Of a stretch of DNA of 64,000 nucleotides, positions 9,727 through 64,000 are shown piece by piece. The notes beneath the pieces were generated by a model. The model was given only the letters and a program-made list of their open reading frames with translations, was not told the origin of the DNA and searched no databases. A program made the position numbers and the translations under genes. Source of the DNA: Heterodontus francisci (lineage: Eukaryota); NCBI RefSeq assembly GCF_036365525.1, contig NC_090399.1:31156430-31220429 (forward strand), read 5' to 3'. Every line of letters begins with the position of its first letter. Position 1 is the stretch's first letter.

Positions 9727-9806
9727 TACATATTGTTTCAAGAAGCCCTCCTGGATGGTCTTTACAAATTCTGCCCCATCCAAGCTAAGTGTGTCCCAGT
9801 CAATAT

Positions 9807-9966: not shown

Positions 9967-10425
9967 TCAATATAGGGGAAGTTAAAATCACCCACCACTA
10001 CAACCCTGTTACCTTTACATCTTTACAGTGGTGGCATTTTTGTTAAACGGGACAGAAGGAAAGCAGTGGTGCCTTTTGATAAATTAGATCTAGAGACTGA
10101 GGATCAACATTCTTCTACAAGTGTAACAACTTGTCTAAAGAGATGAATATGAACACTTTTTAAGAATATAAAATATTTTCATGCTGTCAATTTGTTATCT
10201 TGATAATTTTATGTTTAATACTAGGACATTAAATGAGCTATGGCAACTGTAATAGCACAGTTTGAAAAGCCTGATTTCAGGCATTTCCCTGAACCATAAC
10301 TTGGGTATCAAATTGTAAACCTTTAAAGCAGTTTTAAACCTTTGGATAGTAATTGTTTGGGTTCTAATATCCCCATAAAAGGTTATATTGTTTGTCCATG
10401 GATTAAAAAACTCTGCTTTTCTTAC

Positions 10426-10463
10426 CCTCTATGGAAGTCATGTCTGGAATATTTGTTTCTTGT
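10426..10463 (-). CDS. Putative exon B3 (38 nt: QETNIPDMTSIE)
   Basis: tcttgctttgcag|ACAAGA...TAGAGG|gtaaga. Confidence 0.65.
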
Positions 10464-11045
10464 CTGCAAAGCAAGAGGTGAAACAAATGAACTGCGTGTT
10501 CTCAATCCACAACTACGATTACTTATATTTATATGGCAACATTAACATCTAAAAACATCGCAAGGCACTTCACAAGAGCAAAATAAAAAACATGGCAATG
10601 TAACACCTAAGAAGATATTAGGTCAGATGACCAAATTCTAGGACACAAGATACGTTTTAAGGAATGTCTTAATAGAAGAAAGTGAAGTAGAGAAGCAGAG
10701 AGGTGCAGGGAGGATATTCCGCAGTTTTGTAACAGCGAAGCATAGAAAAATATAAGGCACAGAAGGAGGATGTTCCGCCTATCATGTCTGTGCCAGTCAA
10801 AAAAGAGTTATCCAGCCTAATCTGACTTTCCAGCTCTTGATTTGTTGCCGTGTAAATTACAGCACGTCAAGTTTTTTTAAAAATGTAATGTGTTTCTGCC
10901 TCTACCACCCTTTCAGGCAATGAGTTCCAGACGCCACCACCCTCTGGTTGAAAAGGAATTACTGCTTAACTCCCATCTAATCCTTCTACCAATTACTCTG
11001 TGTATTTCTTATCATATAAATGTATATTTACTAACAATTACTCAC

Positions 11046-11064
11046 CTTTGAATCTGAAGAATAG
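11046..11064 (-). CDS. Putative micro-exon A3 (19 nt: (A)ILQIQ(R))
   Basis: tctcccttttcattag|CTATTCTTCAGATTCAAAG|gtgagt. Phase-compatible with the TM exon donor. Confidence 0.65.
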
Positions 11065-11289
11065 CTAATGAAAAGGGAGATACAGAAGAAAAGTGCATTA
11101 CAAAATACATTTCTCATTACTTAATTTCTTATTGTTGCCAGTTTTGCTAATGGAGCAAAATAATTAATTGTGGGAAGTGATTCAATATGTATGAGAGACT
11201 TGATAACGCCACCGTATGAATGGAAGTTGTTTAATTTTTCATACATTTTATCTTCATATACATTTCAAGAAAAGAACAGGCTAAGGGGT

Positions 11290-11905
11290 AGCCTAAGCGA
11301 GGTCTTTTATGTTCTGAGAAGGTTTGATTGGACAGACGTAAAGAAAATGTTTCTGCTTGTGGGGGGAGTTCAAAACTAGTGGCTACAAATATAAGATAGT
11401 CACGAATAAGTACAGTAAGGAATTAAGGAGGATTTCTTTATCAACAGCGTGGATGCACATGGAGCACATGGAGCAGCTGACGCAAATAGCTGAGATGCAT
11501 GGAGTTATAGAGTCACAGAGTCATTTACAGCATTTAAGGAGGCCATGTGGCCGATTGAGTCCATGCCAGCTCTCGGTGGAGCAATCCAGACAGTCCCATT
11601 TCCCCACTCTTTCCCTGCAGTCCTGCAAGTTTATTTCCTACAAGTGCCCACCCAATTTCCTTTTGAAATCATTGACGATCTCTGTTTCCACAACCCTCGT
11701 AGGCAGTGAATCCGTGGTCAGTGCCACTCACTGCATAATGATGTTCTTCCTCACATCCTCCTTGCATCTCTTGCCAAAAACCTGAAATCTGTGTACCCTA
11801 GTCCTTGTACCATCAACTAATGGGAATATCTTTTCTTTGTCTACCCTATCCCAAGATGTAATAATCTTGTGCACCTCTATCACATCTCCCCTCAATTTCC
11901 TTTGC
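11290..11905. mobile_element. Two degenerate CR1 3' fragments (+ then -); the second is interrupted by the LTR element and resumes at 18465
   Basis: ORF 11728-11931 contains LRGDVIEVHKII...IFPLV...TR. The CR1 motif ctttgctgc|agaacaaccccagc is split by the LTR insertion. Confidence 0.7.
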
Positions 11906-12405
11906 TGCAAGTGCGACCAGAAGGGTAACATTAAAAGAATTAGTATTAGAATATATTAATAAGTTTAGGAGAATCGCTGTAGTTATAAGGGATCATGAAA
12001 TGATGGGATACTTGACCACGATGCTGGAACTGTATAACTCTGTACTTAATTGCCTTCATAGTCTGTGTAAACATGCTGTCCTTGCTTCACTAATCAAAGT
12101 GATAAGGGGAAAGGCTGGAAATAAGACAAACAGTAAACTATGGGACCTGGCATTTTAAGGTTTGGGAGGAGATAGCAGGGGAATGTTTGTTGGGGAATAT
12201 AATCCAGGTTATTGATCAAGCTGCAGACTGGAATGTGTCAGTGTAATGTGAACAATGAGTAATGGTTATCGTATTCTGTAGATGTGTGCGACAGATTCTG
12301 TTTCACTGAGAAGCTATTTGGGTGATGAGGGGGCTTCTCCCTTGCATATGCTTGTATAAAGACCTTTATTTTCTTTAATCTGGTGGACTCAAGGTGGACA
12401 CAACA
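11906..12405 (+). repeat. 5' LTR
   Basis: Collinear with 17956-18464. The start is approximate. Confidence 0.8.
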
Positions 12406-15400
12406 ATTTCCCGTGGTCAGCAGGATCCTCGAGGCTTGGTCGCCAGTGCTTGGTATAATGACGGCATCAGAGAGCAGGTGAGTACATTTACTTTATCAAC
12501 CATTAGATATGGACGTTGGTGTTCTGGACGTGAATCTGGCGGGTTTATTTGAGGATCCAAACCAAAGAACAGGTCCACAGGTGTAGTAACTAAAGGTGGC
12601 ACAGAGTCAGGATCTTGGTTCCTGGGGTAAAAGAGGAGGTAATATCGTTCTGCGGGTTAATCAGGTGAAGAAGTGGACGGTTGTAGAAGAAACAAGTGGT
12701 CCGTTTCTGCAGCGAGGAAGTAAGAACAATTGGAGAGGAAGGGAGAGGTCCATTATCATTTGGGAACCATGGTAGGGTATGGAGAGGTCAGTATCCACAG
12801 GAAGTAGCGAACAGCCGTAGAGGAAGCGAGAAGTCCATTTCCCGCAGAGAGGAATTAAGAACGATCGGAGAGGAAATCAGAAGACCGTTTCCCATGTAGG
12901 AACGTTAGTAGGTCATCGAGAAGTCCGTACCCATTCAAATAGTAACACTATTCAGACTGTAAAACATGAGCCGTGGCAAATAGGATCCAGAGTGGGGACC
13001 CAAGGGTCACTCACCAAATTTTTGGCAGCCAACAACAAGAAGACTTTAGCTAAAATGATCAGGAAGGTTGGGATCCCTCATGGATACCAGATAAGCATAA
13101 GGAATGGGGGAAAGAACAGACAAAAAGGAATAATTATATTATGCAAGAGCTATCTTACCACGTGTCAGTATGGAAAGTCTGAATTAGCTAGGCTAACTCA
13201 GGGAAAGGGACAGGTTACAAATGTTAAAATGGTGAGAGCCAGAGTGGGAAAGTGAGAGATATCAGGCTGAGGTAAGAGGGACAATTTAAACAAGACGTTT
13301 TAGTGAAATTTAAATGGAGTAAAAGCAAGTTACTGTGTCTTTGTTCAAGTCTGCATGAACGTTGGAAGCTTCCACGACTTTATGTACTTGTCTGTGTAGC
13401 TTGTGTGCTGTAGAGCTAACAGTCGTTAAGCCTTTGTTGTCCGGCTTTAATGTTGAAAGTATTAGTCTGTTACTTGTTCTATTCTTGTACATGTATAATA
13501 CTGTGAGAATCTTGAGTAATATTTTGGATGTGAACTAGTGTATTCCTTGGGCTTCGGGCTGGGAATGAAATGCAGATATTTCGGTACTTTGAATTCATAA
13601 CCCATTACAGGAATCAATATTCCTAAGTTTTTGGAATTAAGGAAGTTGGAATGTGATTGCTGAGTGTTGTCATTTCAATCTAAGTTTGTGCACCCAGAAA
13701 TAGGATAGAAAAATGGAATTGCATTTTAATTAAAAATGCTGGTGTGGTGTTTTATTTGTATTTTAAAAGTTGGTTTTGAAACTATGAAAAGACAATGCAC
13801 AGTTTTGTAAACAATAAGCTTCAGCCTTGAAGGCTTGGAAATACCTGGCAGAAATCCAATTTCAAGTTTTTGCTTTAATTGGACCAAAGTTTTAAATCAA
13901 CTATTGATTTGTGTTTTGCAGTTTAAATTAAAGACAATGTCTTACTGACTGTTAAAGGATAATAAAACGAGATATTGGAAAGATTTTAAAGTTAATTTAA
14001 GAGGCTGTGGTGAAGTCTTCATTGCAAGAATGTTAAATAAACTTTTCTTTAGTATTTGGTTTATTACAATCATTTGAAAAAGCGCCAGAAGAAAGAATAT
14101 GAAAAGTAACATCATTTATCTTTGCTTTTTAAAAAAAGAAAACACGTGCTATCCTGTTCTCTGTGCAGTTAATAAGCATTGGTGTGAATTAAATTCAAAT
14201 ATTTAAGATTAACTGACCTGTTAAGTTGGGGCAACTAGAATTTCATTAATGATCACAATGAACTTTGAAGTTGTCATTTCATGATATGAGCGAGTATTTA
14301 ATTCTGGATATAAGACCTGCTCATATATAACATTGGCACTTTTGGCTTCTAAATGTTTATTGCAGTTTACTGAAATTTGGAATCATCGTTGTTGTGTGAA
14401 AAAAAAACCTTAGGTTTAGAATCTCTTACAGAATTTTAAAAGTTCGGAAACAAATTGGGGTTTAATCTGAAAAGCTGCCTTCTCTAATTGAGATGTTTTG
14501 AAGTTTAAGGGGAAAATCAAAATCTAAAAACAAACAAGCAGTCTAGATGTTTTCTCCGAATACAGTGAATATGGGAAGACATGGAACATTAACAGAAACT
14601 ATCACCCCAACAGCACTGTTATTTGAATTTGTCATAATTTTGAGAGGCAAAACGTCCAGTATAATTTAACAAGTTACTTTTAAGAATATAAAATGTTATC
14701 TAATATAATGAACAAACAAATAAACGAAGGATAAAACAGAAAAGGGAATTGTAGCTCTGTGTCATGAACAAATAAGAGAGAGTGTGTGTGGAGTGTAGCA
14801 ATAAGGATCTTAGAAGGTCGGCAGTAAATAATTTGGGGTCGTCTTCCCATTTTAGGAAGCTGTCATGAACAGATTTAGGCAGGAGTCAGGAAGAAAGTTC
14901 ATGTGTGCGTAAATTTCTGTTTGTGTGTTATATCAGTGTCCTGTGATTTCCTTGGCTGTGTTAGCTCTGTCTGTGTCATCGAACTAATGACTTATTAACC
15001 CTTTGTGGCCTGGTCCTGCATGACGTTCTAAAGTTTTGATAGCTGTATAAAATGGATGAGAAGCTGTTAAAGCACACGTTTTATTTTGGCAATGGAAAAT
15101 ACAGAAGGGTTCCTTTAAGGGCGACGATAGGTAATAATAATCAGTACTGCCAATTCGATTGTTTCAATGGGTGAAAAACTCTAAGGCCCTTTCTTTCACT
15201 CCATGCTCGTGAGAGGTTGCTGTTTGAAGTTAGCAGACTTAAACGAAGGACCAAGACTACTGATAAACGTTATTTCCTTTGTTTCTTTGTTTTCATCTAA
15301 AGTGTTGCAGAAATTGTGTGGATAATGTATGTGTGTAAGTTTTAATGTGCTTTCTTTCCTAAAGGGTCGTTGTGCAAAAGGGATGTCAGCACTTTAAAAA

Positions 15401-16095
15401 CGAAGGGATTTCACAATGAGGAATATGAGTTGGTTAAAAAGGAAGGTTTAAACAAACTAAATGCTATAAGAGATTCAAGTTGTGATTTCTGGCCAAGAAT
15501 CACAATATGACTGTATTTTAATGAACGTGGGGATTTTAATCCAGATATGAATTCGCACATGCATAAACAGGGCACATTTTTAATGTTGGATACTGCTAAT
15601 TGGACCTTGGTAAATAGTTTGATCCTGAAACAGTTCACGAGTTTTAAGTTCAAATTGTTAAAAGGGAGAGAATTTGATAAAGGGATCTAAAAAGCTTGGA
15701 ATTTTGAAACATTGTCGGAAGAAAGTGTTCTGAAATTCAAATTTCTTGTTTGTTTGAAAAGTATGTGTTTAACCTATTCCATAGCTCGTGGTTTGTTCTG
15801 TCTTAGTAGGAAAAGGGTGGTGATATCGTCACTAGTCCATTTGAGGACGTTCGCCCCAACCCCTTTCAGACGAGCAGAAAGTTAACCCTTTCCGCTAGCA
15901 GTTTAAACTGACCATGCAACTTTCAAAATTTATTGCAACAAGATTGCTTCAGGAATTTGATCAGATATCTACAATGAATTGAAGCTGATGAATTAAATTA
16001 AATTGAGTTGGCATTCTTTGCTGAAATTTAAAGAGATGGGTAAACAATTAAACCACACACACAGACTTGCTGGTTTCTGTTTGGGCAACAGTAAA

Positions 16096-16422
16096 TTTAT
16101 TTATTTATTTATTTATGTATTTAGAGATACAGCACTGAAACAGGCCCTTCGGGCTACCAAGTCTGTGCCGACCAACAACCACCCATTTATACTAACCCTA
16201 CAGTAATCTCATTCCCTATCACCTACCTACACTAGGGGCAATTTACAATGGCCAATTTACCTATCACCTGCAAGTGTTTGGCTGTGGGAGAAAACTGGAG
16301 CACCCTGCGAAAACCCTCGCAGTCACAGGGAGAACTAGCAAACACAGGCAGTACCCAGAATCGAACCCGGGTCCCTGGAGCTGTGAGGCTGCGGTGCTAA
16401 CCACTGCACCACTGTGCAGCCC
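16096..16422 (-). mobile_element. tRNA-derived V-SINE (HE1-like)
   Basis: Minus-strand head GGGCTGCACAGTGGTGCAGTGGTTAGC...GGTTCGATTC (Pol III A/B boxes), V-domain core, CR1-like tail and (TAAA)n. Confidence 0.9.
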
Positions 16423-16774
16423 TTTTATTTTTTTATTTACAGATACAGCACTGAAACAGGCCCTTCAGCCCTCCGAGGCTGTGCCGACCGTCAACCACCC
16501 ATTTATACTAATCCTATATTAATCCCATTACCCTATCACATCACCACCTTCTCTTAATTCCCCTACCATCTACCTATACTAGGGGCAATTTGTAATAGCC
16601 AATTTGCCTATCAACCTGCAAGTCTTTGGCTGTGGGAGGAACCAGAGCACCCGATGAAAACCCGCGTGGTCACAGGGAGAGCTTGCAAACTCCACACAGG
16701 CAGTACCCAGAATCGAACCTGGGTCGCTGGAGCTGTGAGGCTGCGGTGCTAACCACTGCACCACTGGGCTGCCC
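16423..16774 (-). mobile_element. Second V-SINE, head-to-tail with the first
   Basis: Same A/B-box head and tail. Confidence 0.9.
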
Positions 16775-17955
16775 ATATTGGACTAAATATGAAAACAACA
16801 TCACTGTGTGTCAGCTCAGGGGGTTAGTACAGGTATCTATCCTGTTGATTGAAAATGGAAAAGTCTCAAGGTGATAGGATTGGTACTTTACTTTCCAAGA
16901 ATGTCGCATGGGGTGACATCATTCCCAATGGTCTCAGGTCAAACTACATGACTCACATTCTGTTTCTGGCAACAGGAGGGCCAGCGGCAGATTGCTTAAT
17001 TATTTTGTTTCAGGTAAACTACTGAAGCAATGGCTGCCCAGTGGGTAGCGTAACAGTGGTCACCCTCCTGGTAACTGCAGCAACATGGGAGGTGCCCACC
17101 ATAAATATCAAGAGAACTATATGACTGCATCCAGGACAGGACTTGCAACTCTCTGAAGGAGGGAGCACCTCAAGGGCATCCAACACCAGAGGGAACATCA
17201 TGGTGGGATGGACCAATCTGCTTGCATTTGTTTTAGGACTCAAAGGGATGGGCCTGTGACATGTTGGCTCGGGACTTGGCAGATAATTTTGATTCAGATA
17301 TTGAAGGTATAAGATTTAATATGCAACCCCCCAGCCCGCAGCCCACCCCGGAATATACATCAGGCTGTGAAAAGATTAGATCTTATTAATTTGAATGAGG
17401 AAAGACGGGAGCTGGTAGTTAAGCGACCTATAATGGGGGGAGTGGAGAATGCAATCAAGTTCCTAATGATTGCACCTCAATAACGTGCCAATTGTACTTA
17501 TTAAGGGGGATATAACTTCGTATCCCTGGGGGTGGTGAGGGTTGAGTTGGTGTATCATTTAGGATCACGGGGGTATATATCTCCAGGTTTAAATGGTGCC
17601 AGTTTGATGACAATATGAAAATGTTGAACTGAGTTGCAGCATTACATCATCTGCTCTTGTAATACTCTGAGACCCATCAGTAATGACTCTGCAATAGTGG
17701 TATTTGTCAGCCCTCTTGAAAAAGCCTCTAAGGCAGTCCAAACCTCCCCTACGTAGTGGTGCTTTTTGACGGACAGGACAAGGTTCTTATAAGGAGGTTT
17801 GGGGTGTGCTAATAACCACACCTTCTGCCTACAGATCATTGTCTCCTTTATGGTGGGGGATTTCCACCTTGTCGGCAGGGTCCACAAGGTGGAGGATTTT
17901 GGGAATGTTCCACCTTGTCAGGTGCTGCGTCTGACCAGGGTCCTAAAGGAGGGAA

Positions 17956-18464
17956 TGAAGTGGGACCAGATGGGGAACATTACAAGAATTAGTATTATAA
18001 CGTATTAATAAGTTTAGAAGAATCATTGTAGTTGTAAGGGATTATAAAATGATGGGATACTTGACAAGTATGCTGGAACTGTACAACTCTGCTCTTAATT
18101 GCCTGCACAGTCTATGTAAACATGCTGTCCTTGCTTCACAAATCAAAGACATAGGGGAAAGGCTGGAGAGGAGGCAGCAGTAACCTATGGGTGCTGGCAG
18201 CTTCAATGCTTGGGAGAAGATAGCGAGGGGATGTTTGTGGGGCAATACAATCTATGTTATTGATCAAACTGCAGACCTCGAATGCATCGGGGTAACGTAA
18301 ACAATAAGTAATGGTTATTGTATTCTAGAGATTTGTGCAACAGACCCTATTTCACTGAAAAGCTGTTTGGGTGACCAGAGGGCTTCTCCCTTGCATATGC
18401 GTGATTAAAATCTTTCATTTGCTTTAATCCCATGGACTCGAGTGTAGTTATTTTCTCCACAACA
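17956..18464 (+). repeat. 3' LTR
   Basis: TG...CA termini, preceded by a PPT, with an ATTAAA signal near 18404. Confidence 0.8.
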
Positions 18465-18777
18465 AGAACAACCCCAGCTTTTCCAACCTAACCTTGAAAC
18501 TAAAACCCCACCTGGTTCACTATTGTCATTTAGAGAAGGAAACCTGCCGTCCTTTCCTGGTCTGGGCCTATATGTGACACCAGACCAATACCAATGTGAC
18601 TCTTAACTGCCCTCAGAAATGGCCTAGCAAGTCGCTTAGTTGTCTCAAGGATAAACTGGAGGTGGGCAATAAAGGCTAGCCCTGCCAATAATGTCCACAT
18701 CCCATGAATAAGTAAAGGAACGGAATATTGAACGGGCATATAACAGGCATTAAGGTGATTTATTTATTCATTCTTGT

Positions 18778-20310
18778 CTTCTTTTCCATCTTTTGGGCCT
18801 CCTTATCTCGAGAGACAATGGATACGCGCCTGGAGGTGGTCAGTGGTTTGTGAAGCAGCGCCTGGAGTGGCTATAAAGGCCAATTCTGGAGTGACAGGCT
18901 CTTCCACAGGTACTGCAGAGAAATTTGTTTGTTGGGGCTGTTGCACAGTTGGCTCTCCCCTTGCGCCTCTGTCTTTTTTCCTGCCAACTACTAAGTCTCT
19001 TCGACTCGCCACAATTTAGCCCTGTCTTTATGGCTGCCCGCCAGCTCTGGCGAATGCTGGCAACTGACTCCCACGACTTGTGATCAATGTCACAAGATTT
19101 CATGTCGCGTTTGCAGACGTCTTTATAACGGAGACATGGACGGCCGGTGGGTCTGATACCAGTGGCGAGCTCGCTGTACAATGTGTCTTTGGGGATCCTG
19201 CCATCTTCCATGCGGCTCACATGGCCAAGCCATCTCAAGCGCCGCTGACTCAGTAGTGTGTATAAGCTGGGGATGTTGGCCGCTTCAAGGACTTCTGTGT
19301 TGGAGATATAGTCCTGCCACCTGATGCCAAGTATTCTCCGAAGGCAGCGAAGATGGAATGAATTGAGACGTCGCTCTAGGCTGGCATACGTTGTCCAGGC
19401 CTCGCTGCCGTAGAGCAAGGTACTGAGGACACAGGCCTGATACACTCGGACTTTTGTGTTCCGTGTCAGTGCGCCATTTTCCCACACTCTCTTGGCCAGT
19501 CTGAACATAGCAGTGGAAGCCTTACCCATGCGCTTGTTGATTTCTGCATCTAGAGACAGGTTACTGGTGATAGTTGAGCCTAGGTAGGTGAACTCTTGAA
19601 CCACTTCCAGAGCGTGGTCGCCAATATTGATGGATGGAGCATTTCTGACATCCTGCCCCATGATGTTCGTTTTCTTGAGGCTGATGGTTAGGCCAAATTC
19701 ATTGCAGGCAGATGCAAACCTGTCGATGAGACTCTGCAGGCATTCTTCAGTGTGAGATGTTAAAGCAGCATCGTCAGCAAAGAGGAGTTCTCTGATGAGG
19801 ACTTTCCGTACTTTGGACTTCGCTCTTAGACGGGCAAGGTTGAACAACCTGCCCCCTGATCTTGTGTGGAGGAAAATTCCTTCTTCAGAGGATTTGAACG
19901 CATGTGAAAGCAGCAGGGAGAAGAAAATCCCAAAAAGTGTGGGTGCGAGAACACAGCCCTGTTTCACACCACTCAGGATAGGAAAGGGCTCTGATGAGGA
20001 GCCACCATGTTGAATTGTGCCTTTCATATTGTCATGGAATGAGGTGATGATACTTAGTAGCTTTGGTGGACATCCGATCTTTTCTAGTAGTCTGAAGAGA
20101 CCACGTCTGCTGACGAGGTCAAAGGCTTTGGTGAGATCAATGAAAGCAATGTAGAGGGGCATCTGTTGTTCACGGCATTTCTCCTGTATCTGACGAAGGG
20201 AGAACAGCATGTCAATAGTCGATCTCTCTGCACGAAAGCCACACTGTGCCTCAGGGTAGACGCGCTCGGCCAGCTTCTGGAGCCTGTTCAGAGCGACTCG
20301 AGCAAAGACT
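18778..20310 (-). mobile_element. Young 5'-truncated RTE-clade LINE with an uninterrupted RT frame
   Basis: 491-aa ORF 18840-20315 (QCGFR, FIDLTKAFD, GVKQGCVLAPTLF, LLFADD, C-terminal CxxC...H). 11-bp TSD ttcattcttgt (18767-18777 / 20311-20321). Confidence 0.97.
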
Positions 20311-20677
20311 TTCATTCTTGTGATGTGAGTATAATTGGTAAGGCCAGCATTTATTGCCTATTCTTAATTGCCCTTGAGAAGGTGGTGGTGAGCTGCCTTC
20401 TTGAACTGCTGCAGTCTATGTGCTGCAGCTGCGCCCATAGTGCTTTTTCCCCTGTTGCAGTTTGATATGGTTTGATATCAGTTTGAATAGTTTGCTTGGC
20501 CATTTCGGAGATAGTTAAGAATCTAAAACGTTGCTGTAAGTTAGGAGTCACGTGTAGGCCAGACCATGCAAGGGCAGCACATTTCCGCCCGTGAAAGACA
20601 GTAGTAAACCCGAAATAAAAACAAGAAATGCTGGAACCACTCAGCAGGTCTGGCAGCATCTGTGGAAAGAGAAGCAG

Positions 20678-20713
20678 AGTTAACGTTTCGGGTCAGTGAC
20701 CTTCATCGGAACT
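20678..20713 (-). ncRNA. Minimal hammerhead ribozyme motif (inverted PLE terminus)
   Basis: Exact reverse complement of 23631-23666. Confidence 0.6.
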
Positions 20714-21433
20714 GACAAATATTAGAAAAGTCACAGGTTATAAGCAAGTGAGGTGGGGGTGGGGCAAGAGATAACAAAGGAGGTCTAGATTGGACCAGGC
20801 CACATAGCTGACCAAAAGGTCACGGAGCAAAGGCAAACAATATGTTAATGGTGTGTTGAAAGACAAAGCATTAGGACAGATCAGCTGTTAATACACTGAA
20901 TATTGAACAGCAGCAAGTGCAAACCTGAAAATAAACAGTGGGCAAGCAAACTGAACAAACTAAGATGAAATGAACTAAATGCAAAAAAAAAAAGGTTGTA
21001 AAAAATGTAAAAACGAAAGTAAAAAAAAGGAAGAAAAAAATAACTAAAAATGAAAGTAAAATGGGGAGCTGTCATGCTCTGAAATTATTGAACTCAATGT
21101 TCAGTCCGGCAGGCTGCAGTGTGCCTAATCAGTAGATGAGATGCTGTTCCTCGAGCTTGCGTTGATGTTCACTGGAACACTGCAGCAATCCCAGGACAGA
21201 GATGTGAGCATGAGAGCAGGGGGGAGTGTTGAAATGGCAAGCAACCGGAAGCTCAGGGTCCTGCTTGCAGACTGAGCAGAGATGTTCCGCAAAGCGGTCA
21301 CCCATTCAGCGCTTGGTCTCCCCAATGTAGAGGAGACCACACTGTGAGCAGCGAATATAGTATACTACATTGAAAGAAGTACAAGTAAATCGCTGCTTCA
21401 CATGAAAGGAGTGTTTGGGGCCTGGGATAGTGA

Positions 21434-23260
21434 GAACCTGTCCCCCTCTGAACTTGAGGCACTCCGTTCTCTCAGGTCTAACCCCGACACGGTCATCAAA
21501 CCTGCAGACAAGCGTGGTGCTGTTGTTGTATGGCGTAACGACCTCTACCTTGCAGAAGCTCAACGCCAACTCACGGACACTTCTTCCTACCTCCCTCTGG
21601 ACCATGACCCCACCACCGAACATCAAGCCACCATCCAAAGGACTGTCACTGACCTCATCTCCTCTGGAGATCTTCCCTCTACAGCTTCCAACCTCATAGC
21701 CCCACAATCCGCTTCTACCTCCTTCCCAAAATCCACAAACGGAACTGTCCCGGCAGTCCCATTGTGTCAGCCTGCTCCTGCCCCACTGAACTTATTTCTT
21801 CCTATCTAGACTCTATCTTTTCTCCGCTGGTCCAGTCTCTTCCCACCTACATCCGTGACTCTTCTGACGCCCTACGTCATTTTGACAATTTCCAGTTTCC
21901 TGGTCCCAACCGCCTCCTCTTCACTATGGACATCCAATCGCTCCACACCTCCATCCCCCACCAGGATGGTTTGAGGGATCTCCGCTTCTTCCTGGAACAG
22001 AGGCCCAACCAGTCCCCATCCACCACCACCCTTCTCCGCCTGGCTGAACTTGTTCTCACATTGAACAACTTCTCTTTCAACTCCACGCACTTCCTTCAAG
22101 TAAAAGGTGTTGCTATGGGTACCCGCATGGGTCCTAGTTATGCCTGTCTTTTTGTGGGATATGTCGAGCATTCTTTGTTCCAGTCCTACTCAGACACCCT
22201 CCCCCAACTCTTTTTCCGGTACATTGATGACTGTATCGGTGCCGTTTCCTGCTCCCGCCCCGAACTGGAAAACTTTATCAACTTTGCTTCCAATTTCCAC
22301 CCTTCTCTCACCTTTACATGGTCCATCTCTGACAATTCCCTTCCCTTCCTCGACTTCTCTGTCTCTATCTCTGGGGATAGGTTGTCTACTAATATCCATT
22401 ATAAGCCCACCGACTCCCACAGCTACCTCGACTACACTTCTTCACACCCTACCTCCTGTAAGGACTCCATTCCATTCTCCCAGTTTCTCCGTCTCCGACG
22501 CATCTGCTCTGATGGTGCTACCTTCCATGACGGTGCTTCTGATATGACCTCCTTTTTCCTCAACCGAGGATTTCCCCCAACTGTGGTTGACAGGGCACTC
22601 AACTGTGTCTGGCCCATTCCCCGCACCTCTACCCTCACCCCTTCCCCTCCCTCCCAGAACCGTGACAGGGTTCCCCTTGTCCTCACTTTTCACCCCACCA
22701 GCCTCCATATCCAAAGGATCATCCTCCGCCATTTCTGCCACCTCCAGCGTGATGCCACTACCAGTTGCATCGTCGCCTCCCTTCTGAAGGGATCATTCCC
22801 TCCGCGACACCCTGGTCCATGCTCCATTACCCCCACCACCTCGTCCCCGTCCCATGGCACCTTCCCCTGCAATCGCAGGAGGTGTAATACCTGCCCATTT
22901 ACCTCCTCTCTCCTCACTATCCCAGGCCCCAAACACTCCTTTCAGGTGAAGCAGCGATTTACTTGTACTTCTTTCAATGTAGTATACTGTATCCGCTGCT
23001 CACAGTGTGGTCTCCTCTACATTGGGGAGACCAAGCGCAGACTGGGTGACCGCTTTGCGGAACATCTCCGCTCAGTCCGCAAGTAGGACCCTGAGCTTCC
23101 GGTTGCTTGCCATTTCAACACTCCCCCCTGCTCTCATGCTCACATCTCTGTCCTGGGATTGCTGCTGTGTTCCAGTGAACATCAACGCAAGCTCGAGGAA
23201 CAGCATCTCATCTACCGATTAGGCACACTGCAGCCTGCCGGACTGAACATTGAGTTCAAT
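21434..23260 (+). pseudogene. PLE reverse transcriptase / GIY-YIG endonuclease, disrupted
   Basis: IKPADKRGAVVV, GVAMGTRMGPSYA, FFRYIDD and VVYCIRC...LYIGET.R. Frameshift near 21710 and a TAG at 23084-23086, where the inverted copy has CAG. Confidence 0.9.
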
Positions 23261-23630
23261 AATTTCAGAGCATGACAGCCCCCCATTTTACTTTCATTTT
23301 TAGTTATTTTTTCTTCCTTTTTTTTACATTCTTTTTTACATTTTTTACAACCTTTTTTTTTGCATTTAGTTCATTTCATCTTAGTTTGTTCAGTTTGCTT
23401 AACCATTGTTTATTTTCAGGTTTGCACTTGCTGCTGTTCAATATTCAGTGTATTAACAGCTGATCTGTACTAATGCTTTGTCTTTCAACACACCATTAAC
23501 ATATTGTTTGCCTTTGCACCGTGACCTTTTGGTCTGCTATGTGGCCTGGTCCAATCTAGACCTCCTTTGTTATCTCTTGCCCCACCCCCACCTCACTTGC
23601 TTATAACCTGTGACTTTTCTAATATTTGTC

Positions 23631-23666
23631 AGTTCCGATGAAGGTCACTGACCCGAAACGTTAACT
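23631..23666 (+). ncRNA. Minimal type I hammerhead ribozyme motif in the PLE 3' terminal repeat
   Basis: agtt CCGATGA aggtcactgaccc GAAA cg TTA act: core boxes (U4C variant), palindromic aacgtt stem III and stem I agtt/aact. Confidence 0.65.
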
Positions 23667-24534
23667 CTGCTTCTCTTTCCACAGATGCTGCCAGACCTGC
23701 TGAGTGGTTCCAGCATTTCTTGTTTTTATTTCAGATTTCCAGCATCCACACTATTTTGCTTTTATTATTGTAGTAAACCCGATGTGTTTTTACATCAATC
23801 TGGTAGTTTTATGATTGTTATTAAAGAGACTCACATTTTAGTCCAGATTTTATTCATCAATTGAGTTTAAGTTCCCCCCAGCTGGAGTGGTGGTATTTAA
23901 ATTTATGTTTCCAGAACATTATTCCGGGACTCTGGATTATTAGCCTAGTAATATTACCACTATGCTACCATCCCCTCTTATAATGTCCCCCATTTTGGAT
24001 TAACACTCAGAATAAATTCCTACCCCGCCACACTAAAAAAAAACACATTTTTTTCTGTAGGTGCTAGCAGATGGGATTAAAGTGGGTGGCTAGTTTTGTT
24101 CAGCTGGCGCAGAGAGAGTGGGCTGAATGGCTTCTTTCCGTGCTGTAAGTTTTCTGTGTCACCTTGATTGCGAAGGTTGCATGACTGGGTCTCAGGATGC
24201 GCATCCTTTCTTTTCATTAATTCATACAGGTAACCTTTCTAACCCATCCTGAATTTCCCTGAAAATATTTTGGCAGGCTTTTTCTTGAAGCAGCTGCTGT
24301 TATAACTGCGTATCTCGGACTTAACAGAGTATCATGAGTCAAACAAAGTTACTTGCAGGTGAAAGCATGATGCTATATTCCCAGTTGAGTTTTTCCAGAA
24401 TTCTGTAACTTCCATAGCCATTCCCCCATTGTCAGATTATCATAGTCATTAAATTTAACTTCACAACTAACTAGAGTAGAGTTTTAACTGACAACCACTG
24501 TGTTGCTCGCCCAGTACCTTCTCTACAGTATTGG

Positions 24535-25090
24535 TGGCCTGATTTAAGGAAGGATGTAAATGGGTTGGAAACAGTTCAGAGAAGGTTTACTTGACTAATA
24601 CCTTTAATGAGCGGATTGTCTTATGAGGGAAGTTTGGGCAGGCTTGTCTTGTATCTGCTGGTTTACTAATGTCTTTCACAGAAGGAAATTTAAAAGAGTA
24701 AGAGGCGACTTAATTGAAGCATATAAAATTCTGAGGGGATAGATGTGGAAAGGATGTTTTCCCATGTGGGAGAATCTGGATCTAAGGGTCACTATTTAGA
24801 AGTAAAGAGTCACCCATTTAAGACAGAGATGAAGAGAAATGTTTTCTCTCAGAGGGTTGTAAGTCTTTGGAACTCTCTTCCACAAAAGGTGCCAGAAACA
24901 GTCTCTGAATATTTTTAAGGCAGAGGCTGAGAGATTCTTGATGAGCAAGGGGGTGAAAGGTTAATGGGCATAGGCAAGAATGTGGAGTTGAGGCTACAAT
25001 CAGATCAGCCATTATCTTGCTAAATGGCGGATCAGGCTTGAGGGGCTGAGTCTCCTACTCCTGTTCCTAATTTGTATGCTCGTATGCTCG
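24535..25090 (+). mobile_element. CR1 3' fragment
   Basis: LETVQRRFT...RGDLIEAYKILRG-type sequence and a CR1 tail. Confidence 0.8.
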
Positions 25091-25234
25091 TACCGCACCA
25101 CTGTACCCATTTGCCAATGTACCCCTAGAGTTGCCAATTGGATACCTCGGACGTAATTACTCAATGTAATTCTTCTCACCACAATATTGAATAACTTTAA
25201 CACTTTTCAAACAGCAAAGATTAGACATCCTTAC

Positions 25235-25348
25235 CCTTCTTTCTGCGTAACTGCACACAGCGGAGTACAACGATTAGAAGGATACCTACTTCCACTGCTG
25301 CACTAATGAACAGGGTTAAAAATAGAGCCGTGGTAGATTTAGTTTTCC
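25235..25348 (-). CDS. ncr3: Transmembrane exon of the NCR3/NKp30-like receptor: (G)KTKSTTALFLTLFISAAVEVGILLIVVLRCVQLRRKK
   Basis: tgtgttctccatag|GG...AAGG|gtaagg. 114 nt, phase 1-1, a 22-aa hydrophobic helix followed by a basic stop-transfer. Not in the ORF track. Confidence 0.88.
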
Positions 25349-25894
25349 CTATGGAGAACACAACAAGTCAGATCGAAGCATTGAGACATAAGATCAGCAG
25401 CAGGCCGTTCGGCCCCTCGTATCTGTTCCATCTGAATCTTAATTCCTCTACCATCTTCATCCCACTTTTTAAAATATATAACTAACCAACAAGTTTGCTT
25501 TACAACGTGTGCTGCTTTTAATATAAAAGTTACTCCGCTATTTAAACACGAATTGGACAAAAAGGTGGTATCTTCCATGAAATACATCGCCCCATATTGA
25601 GTTCCACTGACTTTAGTAGCGCTGATTCGCACATGTGTGGTATAACGCAGTAAAAGCCAGCGCACCTGTTTTTTTGCCCCTATCCATGTCTAATTTCACC
25701 CCCAGTCTGTAACTGGTTATTTAATATGGTTAAGTATACTCCTCATTGCAGCTCAGGCTGATTCCGTCTTGAGTCCAACATGGGGCAGCCATTGTGACAG
25801 ACGCGCCAGTTGGGGATAGTGCCCCCACATTGTTCAGCAGATTCTCCCCAACCCCCATTGCTCAGTTGATATTGCAGATAGGAGAATGACTGAC

Positions 25895-26233
25895 CTCTCA
25901 CAGTGAGATTCGTTCCTGCTCCATATTCCTCGCCCAGTTGCATCATTTGCACTTTGCAGTAATACACCCCGGAATCATTCACTCTCACATCCGTTATTAT
26001 TATGGACGCATCTCCATGAAAGAAAGCCTCTTTTTGTTTGTAGATCCGTCCTCTGTACTGTGTTGTCCCATTGGAAACTTCAATGCCATTTCTGCTGTCC
26101 TTGTACCAACTATAAGACCCTATCGCCTTGGAGAGGTTGGCTGCGTATGTGCAGGGGAGGAAGACTGTCTGTCCTATATCTGCCAGAATCCTGGGCACCT
26201 TTTGAATAACTGTGAACTTCTCAGTGTTAATTC
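25895..26233 (-). CDS. ncr3: VJ-type Ig V-set domain exon, NKp30/NCR3-like
   Basis: tttactgatttccag|...AGAG|gtcagt. 339 nt, phase 1-1. FLPC..AIGSYSWYKD..G.EVSNGT..YRGR..DVRVNDSGVYYC..LG..YGAGTNLTV mirrors human NKp30 motifs as recalled (FLPC, AIGSVTW, EVRNGT, DVR, G.GT.L.V). Confidence 0.92.
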
Positions 26234-26279
26234 CTGGAAATCAGTAAAAGAAATTCTCTGCTATTTGATTGCAAGTTGG

Positions 26280-27090
26280 AACTTTGAAAGATGACATTAG
26301 CTTGGTCAAAGAAGTAGGTTTTAAGGGTTCACCTAAAAGGAGGAAAGCGGGCTGGAGAGCGGGAGGGAGGAAATTCCAGAGCTTGGGGCTGAAGCAACTG
26401 AAGGCACGACCACAAATGGTGGAGCAATTAAAATCGGGGATGCTGAAGAGGCCAGAGTTACTGGAGCGCAGATATCTCCAACGGTGGTGGGGCTGCAGGG
26501 GATTACAGAGATAGGGAGGGGTGAAGTCATGGAGGGGTTGAAAACCAGCATGAGAATTTAAAAATCGAGGCATTGTTTAATCCAGAGCCAACGTAGGTCA
26601 GCGAACACAGGGGTGGTAGGGGAACGGGAGTTGGTGCGAGTAAGAATACATGCAGCAGGTTTTTGGATGACCTCATGTTTACAGAAGGTGGAATGTGGAA
26701 GGCCATTGGAATAGTCAAGTCTAGAGGTAACAAAGGAATGGATGACGGTTTCAGCAGCTGATGAATTGGCATGGTGCAAATTTTGACAATTTAACAGGGT
26801 GAATATAGGTGATCTAAGTAACATGTAGCATATGTAGTCAGACGCTCATTGTAGGGTCAGATACGACACCAAGATTATGAGCAGTCGGGTTCAGCCTCAA
26901 ACACTTGCCAGAGAGAGGAATGACTTTGGTAGCTAGGGAACAGAATTTATAGTGGGGATTGAAGCAAATGGCTTCAGCCTTCACAACATTTAACGAGAGG
27001 AAATTTCTGTTCACCCAGTACTGAATGTCAGACCAACAGTCTGATAATGTAGCAACAGCAGAGGAGTCAATAGCGGTGATGGTGCGGTTG
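26280..27090 (-). mobile_element. L2-clade LINE 3' fragment in the leader-V intron
   Basis: AETVIHSFVTSRLDYSNG, TPVFADLRWL and GRAFSCFSPKLWN in ORFs 26558-26824 and 26241-26573. Confidence 0.85.
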
Positions 27091-27200
27091 AATAAATGAC
27101 ATCTTGGGCATTACAGCAGAAAGTGATTGAGCAGTGCATTTTTTCACAGTCACCGAAGACAGACCTATACCCCTTAAGAAACAATGGAATGTCCACTTAC

Positions 27201-27243
27201 CCGAGAGGGCAGCCAATATCCATAGGGTGGGGCTTGGACTCAT
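27201..27243 (-). CDS. ncr3: Leader (signal peptide) exon MSPSPTLWILAALS(G)
   Basis: ATG at 27243 in gaaATG context. A perfect G|gtaagt donor in phase 1 matches the V exon. An acceptor ccactgcag| at 27247 implies upstream UTR exons. Confidence 0.8.
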
Positions 27244-31754: not shown

Positions 31755-31802
<48 letters not shown>

Positions 31803-31960: not shown

Positions 31961-31995
<35 letters not shown>

Positions 31996-57839: not shown

Positions 57840-59640
57840 ACTCTATCCCCCAAAAGTAAATTTACCCCCTTGGTTTATACAGAGGGAGAGTTTTGAGAGA
57901 ACGATGGCAGTATAGGATGGTAACTTAATACAATGATATTTTATCCAATAATCGAAGTTACAGAGGCTACCGAGGAGTGTGCTACTATTTACATAGGTCG
58001 CTGGGTGTTTCTCAATGTTTATATATGTCCTTACACTAGCCATACAATTTGCTTTAATATTTCTAATCGGCATCCCACAATTAAGTTCAATGTACAATCT
58101 TGTGTTCATCTATTTTACCTTCGTCACACATTATTACATTTGGTTTGTGAGCACCTGAAACCAATTACAAGTTTGTAATAATGTAGGTAAGTACTTTAGT
58201 CCTTTGCCTATATGCCCAAGATAAGTTCTAGTTGTGAAGTCAGTTTGCTTGTTTATTTAATGTTTAAATGAACATATTGTCACAACTAACACCGTGATTA
58301 CCAAAGATATTTTGCCATAGAGGAAATCACGTCACAGGTAACTGAGCTCAACCTTCACTCCTCCCTCTCTTACTTTTGCTCCTTCTCCTCATTCATGGGT
58401 TTAATATCTCCCCATTCATATTGTTTCTACTTGTACTAATCCATAGATACCTGCTTCAGTAATCCTTTACCCACTTTCGGTACCAATCCATATAATATGT
58501 ATCAGTATGATCCTAACTCTCTACAAATCAAGGCTTTCCATCTGATGTCTGTGGTCCTAAGTCTACCGCACTGGTGTTTAGGTAATTAAGGCAGAGAATA
58601 TACCGTTATGGTTCGTTCCAAATCATCTCTAAATGTAAATAATATGTGACCTAATTTATAAACATGCCTCTTTTGACCATGGCAGAGGAACTGTTAACTA
58701 CATTATCAGGTATTTTGGCAGCCTCTAGTTCTAAGACTGTAGAGCTTAATATAAATTGAAATTTGATTATAAATTAAAGTACAATATGGATTCTCTTACT
58801 CTTGATAGTATTGAAGTCGAACACTACTGCGATTGAACTGCTCAGTACAACATTTTGCCTTCTGAATTATTTGCATTAGAGTGGAGGCTGGATTGTCAGC
58901 GCCTGCTGAAGCTGATTTCGGTATTGAAGTAACATATTACATGTTAGAGTTAGACGAATATCTTCAGAAATTTTTCGATAAAACATAGATATATTGTGCC
59001 TGAACACATTGGAAAAGATGCTTATTAAATAACAGATGACAAGTACAAATTGAATTCAGAGCAGATGTATATACAAGGTAATCAACTATTTGCAACTGTC
59101 CGATAAGTTTATCAGTTCTGTTTGGCTGCAATTAGCTTAAACTAGTTGTGATAGATTCTGCCGGTTTCCTTACAACAGACAGTTGAATGGTGCATTTTGT
59201 TTTCTACATAATACTGAAAATGTTTCATATGCGATGTTAGTTATTGCATATCCGGCTTATGCAGAGTTCAAATAATTTACTCTGCTGTACAAACGTTGCA
59301 ACACATTATTTGGCTGATGCTACAAAACTGGAAGAGGGGTATACCTTCTGGATACTATGTCGCTACATCTATAAACGTGTGAGAACATTTCCTTAGATTA
59401 CAGTTTGTAGGGAAATTGTAGAAATTGCAAGGAAAGAAACATTGAATTCTTCCATCGATGTTTCGAATGAGTTTATCTTATAACAACCAAAGCGAATGTA
59501 AATAGTCTCAAATCGCTACATACAAGAGAATTTGTTTCACTTAATCGCACCAGCACTGGAAAACTTACAGAGAGGTAACAATTCCATTGGCTTCAATGAG
59601 AAAATGCCAGTTAAATACAAAGCAAATTTCGAAAAATGTG

Positions 59641-59673
59641 GATAGATAGACAGATAGATAGACTGATCGATAA

Positions 59674-59723
<50 letters not shown>

Positions 59724-59740
59724 GGATGGATGGATGGATG
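59641..59740. repeat. (GATA)n/(GATG)n microsatellite
   Basis: Directly visible. Confidence 0.95.
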
Positions 59741-59847
59741 AGTTGAGTTACATGTCTCCACAATGTGCAATAATGTTTAATATTGGATGATAACATGTTA
59801 AATGGCTTCAAGATCAATGCTGTAATCCCACAAATACACACGCAACC

Positions 59848-59934
59848 TTATTTTTTATCATCGGATGAACGGTTGTTTTGCTTTCCTTCATTGAAGGTCA
59901 GTGTACAATATTGTACATTGTCCGCTTCATTTGT
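59848..59934 (-). CDS. Putative terminal cytoplasmic exon with ITIM: TNEADNVQYCTLTFNEGKQNNRSSDDKK*
   Basis: Strong acceptor ttttgtttctctttaaacag|, phase 0. VxYxxL is preceded by acidic residues. Paralogous to 61164-61277. Confidence 0.6.
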   Translation of the reverse strand, partial: TNEADNVQYCTLTFNEGKQNNRSSDDKK

Positions 59935-60429
59935 CTGTTTAAAGAGAAACAAAATATTGATTTAATTTACTTACAAAGAAATAAAGTCTTTTTATGTTTG
60001 CCATCATCGAACTGCATATAAAGTGTTTTCATATATTAGAGATATTATGGCATTTTCTATCCAACTTCTTTTGCTGCAATTTTCCTCAACCTTTCGTTTC
60101 AAAATTTAGAATTAAAACTTTACAATGGCAATACGGTAATTAACCAGTTACTTATAACAATATAGCTGCCTTTTCTGGCTACTCTACTAAGAGAACTTGA
60201 TCGATATCCTGAATACTAGAAATATATTCATCAACTGACGATGAGAAAAAACATGGGCAATTTATTAATCATGTTTCTATTTCTTAGCGTTATGAAAATA
60301 TACAATAACACAATAATATTTTTCTAGAAACATATAAATAATTCTTGATAGACTTATCAATGTGATTGCTATTAGTAATAATAGCTGGAAATAAAGATAT
60401 GTTGTCGAAGCATTTCGCCTTGCACTCAC

Positions 60430-60467
60430 CAGGACAAATTGCAGGATACCAATGTAAGGGAAAGCAG
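60430..60467 (-). CDS. Possible 38-nt exon (phase 1-0: AFPYIGILQFVL) upstream of the first ITIM exon
   Basis: ttttacatatcag|...CCTG|gtgagt. Phase is compatible with the ITIM exon, but the frame is ambiguous. Confidence 0.25.
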
Positions 60468-60504
60468 CTGATATGTAAAACTGAACTCAACTGCACGAGT
60501 TTCA

Positions 60505-61020
60505 AAGTTCATAAGTTCAATGTGATTCTGTGAATCGACAACATTTGCTAAATTATCCTCAGTGTGTTAGGAATTACGCCTGGCAACCAATTTAAGATTG
60601 TCAGTCAAACTCACAGTGTGGCTCATTTGTGTGGACTGGAAACTACATATATTAATACACAGGGCCCTTTTTTTACAGACAGACATAACATGTGCACACA
60701 TTGCTCTTGTTTCAGTTAAACAAAATATGTGCCAGCCATTGGCTGGTTCATTTCTCAGGGCAATGCTTTGACCAATTGGAGTCAGATTGTCTGGTTTAAA
60801 CTTCAAACAAAGCTTGGTAGTTCATTATCAGTCACCATAAACGGGTGCATTCTCCATGGCAACGCTTCTACTAATCAGAGTCCACTTGCCAACCAATCAG
60901 CACTCTCTTGTCATACAGTATATATGTGTTGTTTTCCTTACATTAGTATGCTTTCAATTTGTCATGATGAGTGCAAATGAAAAGCTTCGACAAAATGTCT
61001 CTATTTTCAGCAATATTCAA
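60505..61020 (+). mobile_element. 3' fragment of a second Penelope-like family with a hammerhead relic at 60959-60993
   Basis: QHLLNYPQC...QFKIVS...VAHLCGLETTYINTQGP resembles a PLE C-terminus. Hammerhead-like ttgtc ATGATGA gtgcaaat GAAA agct TC gacaa. Confidence 0.7.
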
Positions 61021-61163
61021 GTTATGTACTGCCAAATGACTAGTAGTAATAATATTATGCAGGATAGCTAGACAAACAATTAGATAGATCGTTTGAGTTG
61101 CATGCCTCCATAATGTGCAATAATGTATAATGGTGCACGCGAACATGCTAACTGCCTTGAAGA

Positions 61164-61277
61164 TCAATCTTTTAACAAACCACACGCAACTTTGTCTTTA
61201 TCTACAGATGATCGGCGTTTTTCCTCTCTTTCATTGACGTTCAGTGCAGAATATTGCACATTATCGTCTTCATTTGC
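61164..61277 (-). CDS. Putative terminal cytoplasmic exon with ITIM: ANEDDNVQYSALNVNEREEKRRSSVDKDKVACGLLKD*
   Basis: Strong acceptor ctttatttctcttcaaatag|, phase 0. Canonical VQYSAL ITIM. Confidence 0.68.
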   Translation of the reverse strand, partial: ANEDDNVQYSALNVNEREEKRRSSVDKDKVACGLLKD

Positions 61278-61404
61278 CTATTTGAAGAGAAATAAAGTAC
61301 ATTACTAAATGTATTATTTATAGGGAAATAAATGTTCAGTTGTTTTGTTTTAATCGAACAACACTTAAATATTCATTCGTACATTAGAAATCTTTGTTGT
61401 GTAT

Positions 61405-62248
61405 TGTCATGCAAGCCTCCACCTGAAAATAATGAGGCATATTAATTTTGCTACATGGACATTAAATTTCAAAATGTTGCTGGAAAGAAAATAAGACCTA
61501 CTACAAGGGGTTGCCAAGCCCCTGGCAGGAGCAAGACATTTTTGCATACTAGCAGACAGTGTAGGAACAAGGGAGCCATCCTCCGCTCTCAATACACAGA
61601 ATACGTGGTCAGACGAATTTAGTCACATGACTAACTGGCTGTTGCAAGTTTTTCTTTTGAACTCGCCACTTAGAATTTGAACTCAGAATGCTCCTGGCTC
61701 CTGGATTGAGAACATCTCTCCCCTGTCTGTTCTCATCTCGTTCTCATCTGCTTTGGAATCTATTGAAGATGCAGGAACACAAAGAGAGAAAAGTGTCCTA
61801 CAGTGAACAAAGTTTAAGAAGAATACTGGGCTCCAACGTAAAGCAAGAAGTACCTACAAAAGGACTCCACAGTGAGCTCGAAGCACAGTCACAAGAAACT
61901 CTTCAGAAAGTGCCTCAAACCTTTCCACTGTATTTTTATCCTGCTTTGTTCTGTCTCTATTTGCATGGGCATATGACGTCTGCATGCTAGCTTGTGGAGC
62001 GGCATTTATCAGTAGGTGATAACCGAAATAGAGTTTAAGTTTAAGTTTTACTAAATTTCACTTTTCTTCTTTAAACCTAAGAAAACCTGTTTGTGCTCAT
62101 TTCTTTCCTTATAATTGGAAAGAGGTGAACATGGATTCACCAAGGGGGAGCTCAAAACACGGTGCATTTAAAATTAAATCCTGTTAGAGTCAGACCAGGT
62201 GAAGGCTGAAAGGAGACCCCTAGACCTCTTTCTCACCTAGTCATAACA
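61405..62248. mobile_element. Solo LTR
   Basis: TGTCATG...CATAACA terminal inverted repeat and an exact 4-bp TSD gtat (61401-61404 / 62249-62252). Confidence 0.8.
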
Positions 62249-64000
62249 GTATCGATGCATATCCTGTCCAGTTTCCTTTGCCACTGTTTTTCCTCAGGCG
62301 TTTCAGTCAACATTTAGCACTGAAACTTTAAAATGACATCCTAGAGTTAAGCAGTTGCCTGTACCATGGAGTTGCCAACACTAGCTACTAAGTGAATTCG
62401 ATTTCTATCATGTATAGACAAATATATTCATTTACTGACTGTGACAATGACACAGTCAACTCATTAACCTGCTTTCAGATTCTTAGAGGCATTATAAAAT
62501 GACAATAATATGGTTAGCATTTCATATGAATAATTCTGGATTGATTTACTATCAAAATTATTGCTATTAATAATATTTTATATTTAAGCATTGTCAGATG
62601 TTACAAGTGCATTACTTGAAGCAGTAGTGAATGATAGAAAATAAAAGGATCCTGGGCTGATTCTTTTAGCTGAGCTCTGATAAGCTAGCTGAATGGGCGC
62701 TATAAATGACTTTAGCACCCTTTGACTAGATTGGTAAAAAATAAGCAATAGTAGCTTTCATTGCTACTGAATGCCTTTTGGAAAGTGCAACAACAAAGGT
62801 ATTCGCTCTGATGTTCATTTATAGCTCGAGAAGCCGACGACGCTCCCTATCGAGGCTCACAGCTGAAGATTTAACACCGGTGCGCGCTTCAGATGAACAA
62901 CTGGCAACTCTAGAACCATAACTCAACATCAAGGAGATGAAGAAAAATATTCAACAATATCGATTGTTCGGAATTTTGATTGGAACCACGATTGTAACCA
63001 AATTAAGCTGCAGTGCTTAACACCAGGATGAAATTTCAAATAGTTTGAAATTGAAAAGAAATGTAAGGGCATATTCTTACAGATTTGTTACAAGTGTGGG
63101 AAGAGTTTACTCGGACTGAATTCTAATCTGCTAGTGTAAGAATGATATCTATTTTCTTGATATCATAGAAATATTATCTTCTAACTTTTTTGTTAAGCAG
63201 AGAAAGAAAAAAAAACATTTTAAAAGTAGTGATCATTCAGCGTTAGAACTGAGATTGACCCTAAGACATTGGCTGCATTTAATACAAAGTAACCAACTTC
63301 ATAATGAGGAATCTTAATTATACACTGGCTTGTAAGTTTCGAGAAGCTGTATTGAATGACATGGATGCAAGGACATTAGTTATTCCTGAAGCAGAAAAAC
63401 ATCTGAGTAAATAGCATATATACAATTCGGGTTTGTATAGCATGAGAAGGAAATTTTAAAAAAAGGTTAGATATTTCCTTTGAGGAAATGGCAATTATAT
63501 TTAACAAGAACAAAATTAGCGATAAGATACTTAACGAGGAGAGGTGTGCCAACATAAATACAGCTTGTTGGTAAGGAAAACAGTTCATTAATTTAAGTTG
63601 TTGATAAGGTCGATTATAGTAGCTTGACATGGAGTTGTATTTTTGGGAGAGTCATAGTGGTAGGTGTGAGGGAATTATATAAAAGTGATAGTTTGTAATG
63701 AGCATTGGGATTTGAGAGGTTTTGAGCAGCCTAAAGAACGAAGCTCGAAACAGTATTGCACTTACATCATTAAGTGCAATTGTAAATACTATCTTCTCAG
63801 TGGATGTTTTAGTACTTTTGCATGGATTGCATGCTTATTACGTCTACACGTTTTAATTCAACGTCTCAAGAACAGATTTTATTTTTGGGTATATACTAAA
63901 AGATCTAATGATAAATATCATCAACATTCATCGAACAAGTATCACTTGTTTAAGAAGATAAGCACACGCCTGCTCATTTTGAGGTGTCATGTACCTGATT

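Follow-up and report, generated by a model that had tools for sequence, protein, structure and literature searches.

Two diverged exon copies on the minus strand of the window (the whole 64-kb stretch of Heterodontus francisci DNA analysed here) very probably belong to a single NCR3-like receptor gene of the horn shark, in which they directly follow one another. Joined by splicing, these exons, denoted A and B, would provide the receptor with a tail that carries two ITIMs and likely recruits SHP-type phosphatases, consistent with an inhibitory receptor. The receptor, of inhibitory type and within the known family of shark NCR3-like genes, is real and already annotated: the last 57 residues of XP_067865380.1/XP_067865381.1 (RefSeq, 'natural cytotoxicity triggering receptor 3-like', Heterodontus francisci) consist of A followed by B, with 100% identity. 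Exons and entry represent the same gene, the RefSeq entry being an automatic annotation only. The initial annotation of this DNA had placed here the 3' terminus of an inhibitory immune receptor clustered with an NCR3-like gene, and on this point it is borne out by the RefSeq model and by the contigs described below.

Table 1. Features of the duplicated tail exons, the adjoining repeats and the neighbouring gene (positions within the window).
Feature	Position	Strand	Evidence
Copy A: internal coding exon, 87 nt, phase 0/0, residues 208-236 of XP_067865381	61191..61277	-	spliced contigs; 29/29 aa match (100%)
Copy B: coding part of last exon, residues 237-264 + stop	59848..59934	-	spliced contigs; 28/28 aa match
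A-B intron, 1256 nt, GT..AG	59935..61190	-	contig junction
Putative read-through extension of A, VACGLLKD then stop	61164..61190	-	intronic in contigs; homolog coding in white shark model X2 and paralog P0009
3' UTR of exon B, as covered by spliced contigs; ATTAAA at 59781-59776	59749..59847	-	
Part of intron preceding A; a homolog precedes B	62257..62575	-	67% over 337 nt
Homologous part of intron preceding B	60050..60380	-	
Element separating the two units; terminal inverted repeats of ~84 nt, 81% alike, around a high-copy core	60381..61014	.	depth in thousands at 60539-61072
High-copy repeat in intron preceding A, not matched in intron preceding B; limits set by depth bins	61340..62407	.	
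GATA/GATG microsatellite directly 3' of duplicated unit	59625..59756	.	
Neighbouring NCR3-like gene (XP_067865370-378): leader 27243-27199, V 26234-25893, TM 25349-25236, short tail exons; extends beyond window start	3475..27243	-	

The two exon copies and their splicing

Both copies begin behind a pyrimidine-rich acceptor on the minus strand (..TTTCTCTTCAAATAG at 61278 for A, ..TTTCTCTTTAAACAG at 59935 for B), and the phase-0 frames behind the acceptors encode VQYSAL at 61259-61242 and VQYCTL at 59916-59899, respectively. The regions 61093-61299 and 59743-59956 share 76% identity over 214 nt (E = 5e-36), and the duplication is far above chance expectation. The intron segments upstream of the two exons are likewise paired (E = 2e-15), therefore the duplicated block comprises intron plus exon. 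Directly 3' of both exons lies the stretch GTTGCGTGTG, whose first bases form the donor at which A is spliced; the ten bases at this donor recur behind the stop of copy B. Neither this donor nor the TGT that copy B has at the codon homologous to that of VACGLL is mentioned in the initial annotation. The initial annotation had described two diverged copies, each with an acceptor, an ITIM and a stop, and this description is confirmed in the sequence. The same holds for VACGLL, found 23 codons past VQYSAL if copy A is read without splicing (stop at 61166-61164), and for the insertion of one nucleotide in an A-run, which ends the frame of copy B (TAA stop at 59850-59848).

We note that an ITIM consensus match, taken alone, is weak evidence. 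The consensus has 263 matches across the six frames of the window, 16 of which are located at most 15 codons from a pyrimidine-rich YAG in phase 0; the motifs of A and B are two of these 16. Between the exons dN/dS is 0.69, a value that would correspond to weak constraint and is based on 26 codons, too few to be informative. The non-coding 3' flanks (61190-61093 versus 59846-59743) are identical at 80 of 98 positions and thus no less conserved than the exons (65 of 87, Fisher p = 0.29), and are more alike than the far intron segment (226/313, p = 0.06); their similarity may reflect constraint, conversion or noise. Neither exon peptide has a match in Pfam. A third copy of 30 nt at 60699-60728, within the element that separates the units, is regarded as chance, as is a VQYCTL readable on the plus strand at 59903-59920, where the DNA is near-palindromic.

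Contigs of two of the three sequencing runs join 61191 to 59934 without mismatch. The joint is GT..AG on the minus strand (CT..AC on the plus strand), and no letters fit both of its sides. The contigs of run X1 (record 2, 1047 nt, depth 19.8) and run X2 (record 8, 902 nt, depth 10) each cover 61279-61191 together with 59934-59749 with 0 other letters, and both explain the entire depth of the two exon bins (6.6/3.33 and 13.8/6.96). They extend 724 and 579 nt upstream of 61277, respectively, a part for which no match is listed in 56000-64000; the 724 nt of run X1 compare to 621-624 upstream coding nt in the RefSeq model. The splice support consists of contigs, not reads, from one sample of one study, whose runs are presumed to be RNA (none is recorded as RNA), and the RefSeq model may derive from the same data and hence is possibly not independent. 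In run X3 the exons A and B are without cover, and the read-through stretch 61073-61190 has no covering contig; as contigs drop rare forms, absence is not implied in either case.

A collapse of repeats was rejected as the source of the A-B joint: it would link homologous positions and lose one unit, whereas the observed joint leads from the last base of A into the first base of B. From this joint it follows that A is an internal exon and that VACGLL is the first part of an intron. A lack of splicing into 61277 and 59934 would have spoken against the initial annotation; both acceptors are in use. The same annotation had also named a high-copy repeat as grounds for refutation; this does not apply to the exons, whose depth stems from one contig per run, but is true of the adjoining inserts.

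A different reading, in line with the alternative last exons of the initial annotation, takes A and B as mutually exclusive last exons, each giving a tail with one ITIM. A has an in-frame stop 8 codons beyond its donor, and this donor (AAA/GTTGCG) is atypical compared to those of the neighbouring gene (GTAAGT, GTCAGT, GTAAGG). In addition, model X2 of the white shark gene and the horn shark paralog P0009 (XP_067865388-391) both end in an A-type exon that is read through. Mutual exclusion is nevertheless most improbable, as A is spliced into B in both informative contigs, both horn shark protein models contain A then B, and B without A occurs in 0 of the 6 models of the gene in horn and white shark. 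The earlier claim does not hold for the horn shark data (contigs of two runs and both models carry A plus B), whereas an alternative tail is found in the white shark model X2. A minor read-through isoform of A with one ITIM may also exist in the horn shark.

The initial annotation further regarded VACGLL as a second ITIM of copy A that has lost its tyrosine and is decaying. We consider such a decay very unlikely, as the stretch constitutes the intron start in the spliced horn shark mRNA, and as a tyrosine is found in none of the four copies that show the position, all of which have cysteine (TGT in A and B, Cys in P0009 and white shark X2). It is copy B that provides the actual second ITIM. 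Since the cysteine is common to both copies, to P0009 and to white shark X2, any loss would predate the duplication and would not be ongoing. A weak match points the other way: the read-through CGFAEL of P0009 aligns with YGYEEL of a sister subfamily (3/6 identical), and an ancestral tyrosine motif at the VACG position is possible in deep time.

The receptor and its relatives in sharks

The receptor (XP_067865381, here P0022, with P0025 as its isoform) consists of a leader, one V domain and an uncharged transmembrane segment (TM), followed by the tail that contains VQYSAL and VQYCTL. Exact 6-mers of its residues 1-207 are absent from the 64-kb window; the leader, V and TM exons are located beyond it. 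The stretch YYCKV..GQGTTL identifies a single V-set domain with a J-like GxGT strand, and the AlphaFold model (low-depth alignment, 9 rows) shows a V fold at approximately residues 19-129, with V domains as all of its top matches. No charged residue occurs in the TM (145-165). The two motifs start at residues 214 and 243, C-terminal to the TM where pLDDT is low, and contain the only tyrosines beyond residue 170, namely 216 and 245, 29 residues apart and both within the ITIM consensus. Motifs of the form (S/I/V/L)xYxx(I/V/L) are hence present behind an uncharged TM, and V-x-Y-x-x-L is kept in horn and white shark. A profile built from both exon peptides and the tail of a paralog recovers the receptor gene (4 matches among 387 candidates); phmmer with the copy A peptide ranks XP_067865381 first of 3 matches, and a search with the P0009 tail recovers only P0009 (2 candidates).

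With respect to family, NKp30 and SIRP tie in sequence searches with the receptor: phmmer gives 1.1e-8 for NKp30 versus 1.6e-8 for SIRPalpha, a profile search 1.5e-9 for SIRP versus 4.6e-9 for NKp30. In structure comparison, VIA gives a Z of 14.6 (rmsd 4.0, 113 aligned), tied with nanobodies at 14.4. The NKp30/SIRP tie, together with the name SIRP-beta-1-like that NCBI assigns to the white shark ortholog, would fit a receptor of SIRP-like rather than NCR3 lineage. Alternatively, the motifs might resemble ITIMs and signal otherwise, by way of sorting or other SH2 adaptors; YxxL also serves as a sorting motif. We hold either variant to be unlikely. The V domain of the receptor is 42% identical (E = 3e-24) to that of the neighbouring gene, which among solved structures clearly matches NKp30 best (7.7e-17 versus 1.2e-8 for the next family). 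Foldseek with the receptor model ranks NKp30 first (3noi, E = 2.4e-11, 30% identity). Both motifs, moreover, retain V-x-Y-x-x-L in both species. We place the receptor within the NCR3-like cluster of sharks, among its divergent members. The basic TM residue that is a feature of mammalian NKp30 is absent, and the receptor is therefore not the equivalent of the activating mammalian NKp30.

The white shark ortholog (XP_041069021/022/024/025) has a V domain 72% identical to that of the horn shark receptor and is its sister in a V-domain tree (100/100). The tree comprises 22 rows with a midpoint root and a long-branch warning, the rows of P0012, NKp30 and SIRP being left out, and supports only the white shark orthology. 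Like the horn shark receptor, the ortholog has an uncharged TM and, in models X1 and X4, an A-to-B junction at the same place. It differs in a shorter copy B, in the lack of a TM in X4, and in two models with one ITIM: in X2 the A exon is read through into VACGFLKD, X3 ends shortly after A. Models with one or two ITIMs imply that a choice of tail exists in the white shark. In either species the first residue is Ala for copy A and Thr for copy B, an argument for one ancient duplication that preceded the horn/white shark split, approximately 200 million years ago. White shark A, in turn, is nearer in sequence to horn shark B than to horn shark A, and independent duplications or gene conversion are possible.

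Several models of related genes show unusual compositions. The V domain of P0009 is 99% identical to that of P0010, its tail ends in a VGNQ exon and an A-type exon that both resemble those of the two-ITIM gene, and its N-terminal peptide is homologous to intron sequence of the neighbouring gene (window 15043-15008); P0009 may be either a truly exon-shuffled gene or a joined model. The models P0023 (white shark) and P0005 (catshark) have tail motifs and no TM, which suggests skipping of the TM exon or model errors.

The neighbouring gene and the surrounding repeats

The V exon of the neighbouring NCR3-like gene is 100% identical to Heterodontus francisci proteins and contains V and J within one exon. 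From the region of copies B and A to its leader exon (27243) the distance is about 32.7 kb, in agreement with the ~33 kb given initially. The claim that both genes form a cluster of paired receptors finds no support. The tail of the neighbour (164-222 aa) contains an ITIM, IQYTEI, its TM has a Glu and no Lys or Arg, and among the horn shark paralogs P0009, P0010 and P0013 neither a basic TM residue nor an activating partner was found. Given the Glu in the TM and the long ITIM tail of the neighbour, the two genes are not a pair of one activating and one inhibitory receptor. An acidic TM residue (Glu) occurs in the neighbour (25349-25236), P0001 and P0013, where mammalian NKp30 has Arg. As judged by alignment, the tail of the neighbour is also enlarged by tandem duplication: at 11065-4240 on the minus strand, three pairs of tiny exons (11065/10465, 6678/5900 and 4794/4275) are found in duplicated blocks that are ~72-80% alike.

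The element between the two units (60381-61014) is presumably MITE-like; no target-site duplication was established for it. A long CA-rich satellite array (29500-35860) is located upstream of the neighbouring gene and is interrupted by a short repeat near 33160-33330. The region 20606-23738 consists of an inverted pair (829 nt, 97% identity) that flanks a reverse-transcriptase-like frame of 477 aa (21653-23086), and is a probable retroelement.

Proposed mechanism, origin and comparison with known receptors

By analogy with known ITIM receptors, binding of a ligand would result in phosphorylation of Tyr216 and Tyr245, and the doubly phosphorylated tail would dock SHP-1 or SHP-2 by both of their SH2 domains, leading to inhibition. 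We regard this step of phosphorylation and docking as probable. For NKp44-1, the accessible part of PMC6514059 describes an ITIM consensus that can be non-functional and does not recruit a phosphatase. Skipping of the weak donor of exon A would give the form with one ITIM, as in white shark isoform X2.

The arrangement may have originated from a tandem duplication of the block of intron and last exon, probably older than the split of horn and white shark. The upstream copy would then have become an internal exon by use of a weak GT site; behind the stop of copy B this site persists, unused. In proteins of the sister subfamily, the distance from IQY/VQY to the next YxxL is 28-29 residues in all five that have both motifs (29 in P0006, P0016, P0010 and P0001, 28 in P0005; P0006 and P0016 are isoforms of one gene). 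The 87-nt exon A gives the same spacing of 29 residues, which may be coincidence. A tentative scenario, which we consider conceivable though rather doubtful, is that the lineage lost the second tyrosine motif of the family and regained one via duplication of the ITIM exon, the weak GT being recruited where the spacing of the family was restored. The donor might then have been conserved as a switch between two ITIMs and one ITIM that tunes inhibition in an ancient relative of NKp30.

Mammalian NKp30 is activating, and its shark relative is of inhibitory type and conserved in horn and white sharks. Together with the missing basic TM residue in the other horn shark paralogs compared, this bears on the ancestral state of the NCR3 family, which could have been predominantly inhibitory or mixed. 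The locus also offers a clear, testable case of a tandem ITIM pair that results from exon duplication, with possible tuning by splicing. The gain is incremental, given that RefSeq already contains the gene and that its family was recognised before. The shark NCR3 gene family was reportedly described by Kinlein et al. in 2021 (PMID 33742259), a work that may already describe the receptor subtype or its ITIMs. The literature searched, whose scope does not include that work, contains no description of ITIM tails of shark NCR3 genes or of the duplication that gave exons A and B. Likewise, the accessible sections of PMC12227049, PMC10751288, PMC11599192, PMC10450919, PMC6514059, PMC12272517 and PMC6360152 make no mention of ITIM tails of shark NCR3 genes.

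Three known systems invite comparison. With human NKp30 (NCR3) the receptor shares a single V domain, as its top Foldseek match, and differences in the tail: the tails of human NKp30 isoforms differ through alternative splicing (PMC6514059, accessible sections). In contrast, the TM of human NKp30 contains an arginine and signals via CD3zeta/FcRgamma (same sections of PMC6514059), whereas the shark receptor has an uncharged TM and two ITIM-type motifs. The shark NCR3 gene family is, as far as the available excerpts go, a multi-gene family of non-rearranging VJ-type receptors, like the horn shark receptor; nurse shark NCR3 sequences are MT914154-914161 (cited in the accessible portion of PMC12227049). 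Finally, inhibitory KIRs (KIR2DL1, KIR3DL1; KIR3DL3) have two ITIMs at similar spacing: according to the accessible text of PMC6360152, ITIMs of KIRs are ~25 residues apart and bind SHP-1/2 bivalently, compared to a gap of 23 residues between VQYSAL and VQYCTL, and a shared mode of action would be expected. The same text describes KIR variants with one ITIM and shuffling of tails among paralogs. No kinship with KIRs is claimed, and the second ITIM of the shark receptor differs in that it stems from a duplicated exon.
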